The translations under genes were made by a program, and so were the position numbers. The notes under the pieces are model-generated. The model saw only the letters and a program-made list of their open reading frames with translations. It ran no database searches and was not told the DNA's origin. From Eledone cirrhosa (Eukaryota): 64,000 nucleotides of DNA. The stretch covers positions 81,220,001-81,284,000 of the forward strand of contig OZ024742.1 in NCBI GenBank assembly GCA_964016885.1, read 5' to 3'. Below are positions 39,741-41,205 of the stretch, one piece after another (the first letter of the stretch is position 1; each line of letters opens with the position of its first letter).

Positions 39741-41205
39741 ATATGAAAGACGTAAAATAAGAAAATTACAAAAATTAAAAATTAACTTACTAAAATGTTC
39801 ACTCCAACTAATTAGTTTCTGTAAGGGGATAAATATAGTTACGTAAGATAACTATAGAGAATCCCTTACGTCATCAGGGAGTCTATTCTCAGCTAAGTTC
39901 CCAGGCAATGCGCGGACACTAGGAACCCATATAAACATAATAATTCAGTGGATGGAACAAAGATAGCGGGGACTAAATGATCAATCACGTGACACTGAGG
40001 TTAATCAGTTAGGAGTGGGGTGGTTTTATGACAATAGCCTACTACTACAATGAATCACAGCAGTAAATTTTGGCAAGCTTTACTCAACAAATAATTTGGA
40101 GATAAATATTGAGAATTAGTATATCTACCAACATATGTATACAGATGTATACTCATGCTAGCAAATATATATGTTTTGTCTTAGTACCTTTGTGGTTCTA
40201 TGCAGGGGGATGCAGAACAATTATATGAAAGACGTAAAATAAGAAAATTTTAAAAATTAAAAATTAACTCACTAAAATTTTCACTCCAACTAATTAGTCT
40301 CTGTAAGGGGATAAATATAGTTACGTAAGATAACTATGGAGAATTCCTTACGTCATCAGGGAGTCTATTCTCAGCTAAGTTCCCAGGAAATGCGCGGACA
40401 CTAGGAACCCATATAAAAATAATAATTCAGTAGATGGAACAAAGCTAGCGGGGACTAAATTCCAAAGCACTGAAAAAATGCACTGCCTCTTTGGTCAGTG
40501 GCAGATTATAAAGGATCAATCACGTGACACTGAGGTTAATCAGTGAGGAGTGGGGTGGTATTATGACAATAGCCTACTACTACCATGAATCACAGCAGTA
40601 GATTTTGGCAAGTTTTACTCAACAAATAATTTGGAGATAAATATAGAGAATTAGTATATCTACCAACATATGTACACAGATGTATACACATGCTAGCAAA
40701 TATATATGTTATGTCTTAGTACCTTTGTGGTTCTATGCGGGGGGGGGGGGATGCAGAACAATTATATGAAAGACGTAAAATAAGAAAATTTTAAAAATTA
40801 AAAATTAACTTACTTACTTGCCACTGACCAGAGAGGCAGTGAATTTTTTCAGTGCTTTGGAATTTAGTCCCCGCTAGCTTTGTTCCATCCACTGAATTAT
40901 TATTTTTATATGGGTTTCTAGTGTCCGCGCATTGCCTGGGAACTTAGCTGAGAATAGACTCCCACATGACGTAAGGAATTCTCTATAGTTATCCTACGTA
41001 ACTATATTTATCCCCTTACAGAAACTAATTAGTTGGAGTGAAAATTTAGTAAGTAAGTTAATTTTTAATTTTTAAAATGTTCATATTTTACGTCTTTCAT
41101 ATAATTGTTCTGCATCCCCCTGCATAGAACCACAAAGGTACTAAGACATAACATATATATTTGCTAGCATGAGTATACATCTGTATTGGTAGATATACTA
41201 ATTTT
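39741..41205 (-). repeat. HHR array B: tandem units (482 and 541 bp) plus inverted copy (~40818-41205); diverged relative of array A
   Basis: atatgaaagacgtaaaat at 39741, 40223 and 40764; shares atcaatcacgtgaca and aactaattagtttct with array A. Confidence 0.9.
39801..39882 (-). ncRNA. Type I hammerhead ribozyme of array B (copy 40283-40364 has GAGA; inverted copy 40958-41039 has CACATGA)
   Basis: actcc-CTGATGA-c-gtaagg...ccttac-a-GAAA-ctaattag-TT^-ggagt. Confidence 0.8.

Follow-up and report, generated by a model that had tools for sequence, protein, structure and literature searches.

How does a short array of hammerhead ribozymes come to carry an inverted copy of its own unit, and why do two such arrays in one region share the same arrangement? 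The question is raised by a stretch of 64,000 nt from Eledone cirrhosa (assembly GCA_964016885.1, 3.0 Gb; contig OZ024742.1, positions 81,220,001 to 81,284,000 of the forward strand), here called the window, in whose own numbering all coordinates are given. It holds array A (23116..24546) and array B (39745..41204), each made of tandem units followed by an inverted arm. Both consist of a non-coding repeat of about 480-600 nt with a hammerhead core, which is inserted in (TA)n tracts in the form of head-to-head, 5'-truncated tandem arms. The two arrays are independent insertions, from two subfamilies of this high-copy repeat, that probably arose by target-primed reverse transcription (TPRT) carried out by a Penelope-like enzyme. 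The family as a whole is likely a retrozyme of the kind without long terminal repeats (non-LTR), mobilised by Penelope-like elements (PLEs) from RNA processed by the ribozyme.

The hammerhead of both arrays is of type I and lies on the minus strand of the window, where it reads ACUCC-CUGAUGA-C-GUAAGG…CCUUAC-A-GAAAC-UAAUUAG-UU|GGAGU in array B and CUUCC-CUGACGA-C-GGAAUG…CAUUCC-A-GAAAC-UAAUUAG-UU|GGAAG in array A. Stem I pairs as ACUCC/GGAGU in B as against CUUCC/GGAAG in A, and stem II as GUAAGG/CCUUAC as against GGAAUG/CAUUCC. Past an internal loop, helix II continues into a distal extension which covaries as well (UAUAGUUAU/GUAACUAUA in B, AUGUUUUC/GAAAGUAU in A). Common to both arrays are stem III, CUAAUUAG, the GUU, and a C following CUGAYGA that stands opposite an A preceding GAAA. 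A complete ribozyme with an intact core is found in only one of the three copies in each array: in B at 39798..39885(-) (CUGAUGA…GAAAC, GUU), with cleavage predicted between 39806 and 39805, and in A at 23581..23666(-) (CUGACGA…GAAAC), with cleavage predicted at 23589|23588. The remaining copies carry GAGAC, CACAUGA or CCGACGA+GAAAAU changes, or are cut by a junction. Judged by their sequence, two of these in array B are likely to be inactive, one at 40280..40367(-), where GAGAC replaces GAAAC and so alters a core position, and one in the plus arm at 40955..41042(+), where CACAUGA replaces CUGAUGA and the cleavage-site position falls at 41034|41035.

The units of the two arrays are homologous and measure about 480-540 nt, the A and B types being 79% identical, and no stop-to-stop frame within the arrays is longer than 75 amino acids. 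Positions within the unit are given on the 539-nt B-type unit, numbered from the cleavage site. Array B, of the subfamily with stem II GUAAGG, is 1,460 nt long. Its minus-strand arm (39745..40818), in ribozyme sense, starts at 40818 (unit position about 15), runs through units of 531 nt (40288-40818) and 482 nt (39806-40287) and closes with a 61-nt end piece, whose 3' end at 39745 (unit position about 70) is TTTCATATA adjoining the (TA)n target microsatellite at 39680..39744. The plus-strand arm, the inverted copy, occupies 40819..41204 and runs from unit position 324 to about 190 (…ACTAATT), where it gives way to (TC)n; the region 41205..41361 consists of (TC)65 and then (TA)13, a CT run typical of this kind of end and then the TA target. 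Array A, of the subfamily with stem II GGAAUG and a CUGACGA box, is 1,431 nt long. Its minus-strand arm (23116..24174; 473 + 522 + about 60 nt) starts inside the hammerhead at unit position about 472, and its plus-strand arm (24169..24546), which shares 6 nt with the other arm, runs from unit position 329 to about 178 (…GATATTAATT), against the (TA)n of 24547..24595. The left end at 23116 is atypical, lying at unit position about 488, where …GCTTCTC is followed in sense orientation by (TC)27(TA)27, that is, by the (TA)27(AG)27 of 23011..23120. In both arrays the start of the inverted arm adjoins GAGGCAGUGA, hereafter the landmark, and the inverted arms also finish at a common unit position (about 178-193). 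What the original prediction had stated about the stems, the GUU, the C/A opposition and the arrangement of tandem units with an inverted copy beginning near the landmark was found in each case as written.

That prediction had further claimed that the two arrays covary in every ribozyme stem and that this reflects selection on the RNA fold. Both points can be addressed with an alignment of 114 distinct hammerhead copies from five subfamilies, which were admitted with at most one mismatch in each of CTGATGAC and GAAACTAATTAGTT, helices I and II being left unconstrained. Standard pairs occupy 94.5% of the 2,389 stem cells. When columns were shuffled, 85.7% of cells were paired and none of 500 shuffles reached the observed value, and when partners were slid by 1-3 columns the figure was 33-49%. 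Ten of the 21 pairs have changed on both sides. The cells count copies and not events; the independent events are comparable in number to the subfamilies. Helix I is 93.9% paired and contains two pairs changed on both sides (CG 86, UA 13, UG 10; and AU 78, CG 12). Helix II is 97.4% paired, likewise with two such pairs, and its distal part is 88.8% paired, with double changes in all six pairs tested. Pair 10.3/11.3 takes all four Watson-Crick forms (UA 65, AU 20, CG 16, GC 12, with one copy unpaired), and pair 10.6/11.6 is GC in 71 copies and UA in 36. Helices I and II and the helix II extension are thus kept by compensatory changes across the five subfamilies, which supports selection on the fold and extends it beyond the two arrays. 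Covariation holds for stems I and II and does not hold for stem III, which is invariant across the 114 copies; this invariance is itself uninformative, since helix III belonged to the pattern by which the copies were selected.

The family to which these copies belong is large. A genome-wide search with CTGAYGA-N50-75-GAAACTAATTAGTT gave 8,532 exact matches, and the reversed-pattern control gave none. Among the matches listed, helix II comes in at least five types, GCAAUG, GUAAGG, GGAAUG, GAAAGG and GUAAUG, each with a complementary 3' strand. The B unit alone gave 2,562 first-look candidates in the genome, and the scored ones, which share 93-96% identity with it, are spread over many contigs; for the A unit, a copy with 96% identity stands on another contig (L083). 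Since A and B units are only 79% identical to each other and the A unit has so close a relative elsewhere, the two arrays represent separate insertions of two subfamilies. Five reference units, pairwise 73-91% identical, were used to describe the family further. The sample consisted of 100 loci. Similarity to B was the basis for 30 of them, and the pattern search supplied the others, as 30 of its matches and 40 places that it listed on one contig (C1). Mapping of the reference units onto 101 loci resulted in 91 complete non-redundant arrays. Anchors were matched with one mismatch; at two mismatches the reverse strand also matches, because CTAATTAG is palindromic. Full units (29 distinct) range from 478 to 600 nt. 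Within the unit, positions 301-320 (about 40520-40540 and 23295-23315 in the window) hold a block, GUGUCACGUGAUUGAU, with a CACGTG palindrome that is kept in four of the five subfamily references, the B-type reference having CACGTA; the block is 0.81 invariant and, going by its sequence, could be a candidate internal promoter or factor-binding site.

The two-armed layout of arrays A and B recurs throughout this sample. Of the 91 arrays, 63 are head-to-head, 26 have a single arm, two are double head-to-head and none is tail-to-tail. Arms have a variable start at the inner junction and end on the outside, and the outer ends fall at two sites. One, at unit position about 70, reads …TTTCATATA and passes directly into (TA)n; the other, at about 190, reads …ACTAATTCTCT, often followed by (CT)n and then by (TA)n. 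An end at the first site is combined with one at the second in 51 of the 63 two-arm arrays, and no array has the combination 70/70 or 190/190. A (TA) tract of at least five repeats adjoins 70 of 70 '70' ends and 68 of 71 '190' ends, whilst (CT) tracts of at least five repeats are found at 30 of 71 '190' ends and at none of the 70 '70' ends. Array B has such a '190'-type CT run on its right, (TC)65, and array A one on its left, (AG)27. Both end sites lie within the most conserved blocks of the unit outside the ribozyme (positions 41-80, 0.80-0.85 invariant; positions 181-200, 0.85). The median length of two-armed arrays is 848 nt. Within an array, both arms come from one subfamily. In a comparison with about 45-100 other arms, an arm was closest to its own partner in 15 of the 36 arrays that could be tested; the partner takes first place in array A and place 26 of 100 in array B. 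At the 63 junctions the arms overlap by 1-19 nt in 35 cases, are blunt in 10 and are separated by an insert in 18.

The (CT)n runs follow the element end, …AATTCTCT, and precede the (TA)n target, as at 41205-41335 and 23066-23120 in the window. They look like the result either of stuttering on a CUCU template at initiation or of the birth of a microsatellite from the element end. Microsatellites are very dense in this region generally, with 93 Tandem Repeats Finder rows in the 64-kb window, mostly (TA)n, (TC)n and (CA)n; weak matches to miRNA families in Rfam, such as mir-297 and mir-1277, are artefacts of TA and TG microsatellites.

The inner starts of the arms cluster just after the ribozyme cleavage site. 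Among the 126 arm starts of the 63 two-arm arrays, 28 fall within 1-27 nt after the cleavage site, where 6.3 would be expected (p=2.6e-11), and six lie exactly at unit position 1. At one locus (L013) both arms begin with GGAGUG, with a single base between them (…CACTCC[A]GGAGTG…). Arms stopping at the cleavage site cross no uncut site in 10 cases, one in 16 and two in 2. What stays constant in the family are the two outer 3' ends, near 70 and near 190, and a hot spot for starts within the 27 nt that follow the cleavage site.

Three ways in which such starts might be coupled within an array were considered and rejected. Were both arms to run off one RNA end, their starts should go together; in 3 of the 63 arrays both lie within the 27 nt (Fisher p=0.62), and statistically they are independent. 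A mutual blocking of polymerases on one RNA is not supported because only two '190' arms start just above 70 and only three '70' arms just above 190. Snap-back copying predicts symmetric junctions, and symmetric arrays are few (for example L008, 7/7, and L013, 1/1).

An insertion of this shape has a close counterpart among PLEs. According to the passages of Craig et al. (2021, PMC8557442) on insertion structure, PLE insertions comprise partial tandems, often with an adjacent inverted 5'-truncated copy and with a tail at one end; PLEs prefer (TA)n, and their hammerheads reside in the pseudo-long terminal repeats (pLTRs). The arrays of E. cirrhosa agree with that description in having a hammerhead in the repeated part, a bias towards (TA)n, that is, a microsatellite target, partial tandems, an inverted 5'-truncated copy and an extension at one end. 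They differ from it in lacking a reading frame for reverse transcriptase (RT)/GIY-YIG, and in a 'tail' of about 120 nt as opposed to 30-40 bp; moreover, the same passages state the (TA)n preference for Naiads, which are without canonical hammerheads. A possible enzyme source is at hand in the genome: a first-look search for GIY-YIG domains (PF01541), of the kind PLEs carry, listed 10,596 candidates, and the 150 scored among them were all above the cut-off, some with open frames of 844-1,096 amino acids. It is on these PLE-type insertion features and on the abundance of GIY-YIG genes that the attribution to TPRT by a Penelope-like enzyme is founded.

The alternative that fares best, and is nonetheless improbable, is that a reverse transcriptase of the long interspersed nuclear element (LINE) type copies the RNA in place of a Penelope-like element, the inverted arm being due to twin priming, a process which gives inverted 5' parts. 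Open frames with RVT_1 and zf-RVT domains of LINE type are indeed present among other retroelement fragments in the window (16370-17089(-), 54636-55232(-), 55902-56519(-), 57072-57845(-) and 61005-61676(+)). Against this, neither poly(A) nor LINE 3' tails are found at the array ends, GIY-YIG genes are very abundant in the genome, and the combination of tandem units, fixed ends about 120 nt apart, (TA)n and a PLE-type hammerhead is the set that the passages of PMC8557442 ascribe to PLEs.

Less probable again is an origin of the palindromes at the DNA level, by template switching during replication or by fold-back in a satellite array, with no RNA intermediate. Microhomology at many junctions would suit such an origin, as would AT-rich microsatellite surroundings prone to fork stalling. 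It is weakened, however, by the complete lack of tail-to-tail arrays among the 91, by the two fixed outer-end sites adjoining (TA)n and by the enrichment of starts at the RNA cleavage site, none of which it leads one to expect; the copies are, furthermore, short arrays dispersed over many contigs.

Very little can be said for the existence, near GAGGCAGUGA, of a defined site at which transcripts begin or templates are switched, which the original prediction had proposed from the shared start of the two inverted arms. To the starts at 329 in A and 324 in B, three further arms can be added, at 315, 336 and 337. Across the 63 two-arm arrays, by contrast, the landmark region is not enriched in starts, with 11 of 126 between positions 310 and 353 where 10.3 are expected (p=0.45) and 6 of 126 between 318 and 340 where 5.4 are expected, as a random distribution would give. 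The landmark block is among the least conserved in the unit (0.35 invariant). In unit 1 of array B, 39806-40287, 53 nt are gone (in the 39974 region, as compared with 40460-40512), the landmark included, so that it appears to be dispensable, at least for persistence in the genome. That the inverted arms of both arrays start close by is best put down to chance. Least probable of all is a single composite element, formed once and duplicated as DNA, to which the similar lengths of the arrays (1,431 and 1,460 nt) and the equal start and end of their inverted arms might point, but whose units should not then be only about 79% identical with 93-96% identical relatives of each elsewhere, nor differ in the break on the direct side (about 472 in A, about 15 in B) and at the left end (488 and 70), nor show the same layout with other junctions in 63 of 91 arrays genome-wide.

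TPRT by a Penelope-like enzyme can be set out as a sequence of events, of which we infer all those that involve RNA or an enzyme. The unit would be transcribed as a multimer, and this RNA would be cut by the hammerhead, probably in a dimeric form held together by the palindromic helix III; the cut would define the 5' terminus at which many cDNAs would end. A Penelope-type RT/GIY-YIG enzyme would break a (TA)n tract, and both DNA 3' ends would prime cDNA at conserved AU-rich sites in the RNA, CAUAUA at 66-70 and CUCUAUAU at 186-193. Both cDNAs would then grow toward the 5' end of the RNA and meet in a head-to-head junction, in many cases with microhomology, the start point of the second arm being largely stochastic. 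With two cDNAs joined in this manner, the 'inverted copy' would be the second arm of a single insertion event.

What kind of ribozyme would serve in such a scheme? The 114 copies, preselected at no more than one mismatch per core block, have the type I core CUGANGA … GAAA with an NUH triplet. The box is CUGAUGA in 91 copies and CUGACGA in 11, GAAAC is present in 108, and H17 is U in 113. A C follows A9 and an A precedes G12 in 111 copies, the other three having U/A. A G10.1-C11.1 pair directly adjoining A9 and G12 is found in none of the 114; the G-C pair stands one step further out. It is possible to regard this either as a C.A opposition at 10.1/11.1 or as a canonical G-C pair pushed outward by an extra base on each side. 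A U.U occurs at this place in natural hammerheads (PMC3088659, passages on this site) and at the base of helix II in the axolotl retrozyme HHR_Amex2 (PMC7229834, same topic), so that a non-Watson-Crick pair at this point is a feature shared with metazoan retrozymes; the passages on this site in PMC4209133, PMC3088659 and PMC7229834 contain no description of an extra A opposite the C.

The minimal hammerheads of PLEs, as characterised in the relevant passages of Cervera & de la Pena (2014, PMC4209133), are marked by one additional nucleotide following A9, by a helix II that is long and a helix I that is short, and by palindromy in helix III; they are thought to work in dimeric form. The ribozymes of E. 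cirrhosa are like them in the extra nucleotide between A9 and the first helix II G-C pair, in a helix II of 6 bp with an extension, a helix I of 5 bp and a palindromic helix III, ACUAAUUAGU, and in the presence of many covarying families inside one genome. They are unlike them in having a second unpaired base, an A, opposite the extra C and before G12, as a result of which the core is parted from the G-C pair by the C/A opposition in 111 of 114 copies, and in a helix III that is not absent but keeps an 8-nt palindrome. From A15.1 to U16.1 the sequence is a 10-nt palindrome. The predicted homodimer forms an intermolecular helix III (-57.2 kcal/mol, as against 2 x -23.8, or -47.6 kcal/mol, for two monomers), and the hammerhead shape is absent from the minimum-energy monomer fold in four of the five copies folded.

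Similarities to metazoan non-LTR retrozymes, in so far as these are covered by the main texts of Cervera & de la Pena (2020, PMC7229834) and Li, Clavereau & Pollet (2026, 10.64898/2026.07.22.740005), are also present. In both cases non-coding, AT-rich tandem units each carry a type I hammerhead, thousands of copies are dispersed in the genome, and a weak palindromic helix III points to dimeric cleavage. The unit of 480-600 nt, by contrast, exceeds the range of about 170-400 nt reported for those elements. A derivation of retrozymes from PLEs has been proposed in the same preprint, on the evidence that in vertebrates the two co-occur and show similarity in the pLTR. Neither main text describes arrays of two head-to-head arms, fixed outer ends or a (TA)n target: the words 'inverted' and 'microsatellite' do not occur in that of PMC7229834, and that of the preprint uses them solely in the title of a reference and where it comments on the birth of satellites. 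In a single literature search, PMC8557442 was the only paper on hammerheads or retrozymes to name cephalopods. Circular RNA has been shown for metazoan retrozymes in the texts cited, whereas the present family is described from genomic sequence.

Hammerheads are also found in satellite DNA, as in newt satellite 2, Sm-alpha of Schistosoma and pDo500 of Dolichopoda (about 500 bp), whose units of a few hundred bp contain a type I hammerhead and whose transcripts are processed by the ribozyme. The repeats of E. cirrhosa resemble these satellites (on which see also PMC2837043) in unit length and in the type of ribozyme, but occur as short, dispersed arrays (median 848 nt for two-armed ones) with insertion-type ends, as opposed to long satellite blocks.

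Several observations weigh against a family of active retrozymes mobilised by PLEs. The C/A adjoining the core departs from the hammerhead consensus and could lower activity. The Rfam hammerhead models gave no match at the gathering score over the whole window, and none at E<=10 over 39000-42000 or over the 106 nt of 39790-39895. In 20 of the 10,596 GIY-YIG loci, searched with 1.5 kb of flank per side, which may miss a pLTR, no similarity to the unit was found except for an incidental copy in one (L118). Simple independent priming does not explain the strict pairing of 70 with 190 ends, and the starts in the 63 arrays do not accumulate at the points where either polymerase would run into the primer of the other. 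Twelve of the 63 arrays with two arms have one or two atypical outer ends; the left end of array A (488) is one of these. Finally, the 70 intact-core loci came from the first 56 Mb of contig C1, so that the sample is not random with respect to the genome and may be biased.

It is attractive to consider that the pairing of the 70 and 190 ends and the confinement of CT runs to the '190' end might together be a record of two-primer integration of the Penelope type, a suggestion that should be taken as tentative. Both 3' ends of one (TA)n break would be extended from two AU-rich sites on ribozyme-processed RNA, with telomerase-like stuttering on CUCU at one of them, whilst the C/A spacer and the 10-nt palindromic helix III would make for a ribozyme that is active only as a dimer and sets the 5' end of the template.

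Other elements with hammerhead-like words occur in the window besides arrays A and B. Seven further CUGAUGA…GAAA motifs, at 1030(+), 7538(-), 11120(+), 31722(-), 31862(+), 34092(-) and 34298(-), resemble minimal Penelope-type hammerheads in their long helix II, AU-palindrome helix III and short helix I. Some form near-identical inverted pairs, such as 7538-/11120+ and 31722-/31862+, and they have no sequence kinship with the two arrays. Directly to the right of array B, an identical stretch of 125 nt surrounds a CTGATGA word at 42059-42065(-) and 42350-42356(+), in opposite orientation and about 290 nt apart; this pair is an inverted repeat of another element. A tRNA-like match at 52273-52328(-) scores 29.2 bits against an Rfam gathering score of 29 and covers model positions 8-63 only.

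What do these arrays mean for the family and for retrozymes at large? More than 8,500 motifs of this kind lie outside the Rfam models, and since they escape these models standard annotation would miss them. The arm starts at the cleavage site offer indirect evidence, read from genomic copies, that a hammerhead with a non-canonical C/A may be cleaved in vivo. Retrozymes have been proposed to spread through RNA, and their descent from PLEs has recently been argued on phylogenetic grounds. The insertions in E. cirrhosa carry what would be direct genomic footprints of that route: a Penelope-type layout, (TA)n targets, two fixed, putative priming sites and presumed cDNA ends at the cleavage site. 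With both the sites on the RNA and the target defined, the mechanism by which retrozymes are inserted becomes testable.

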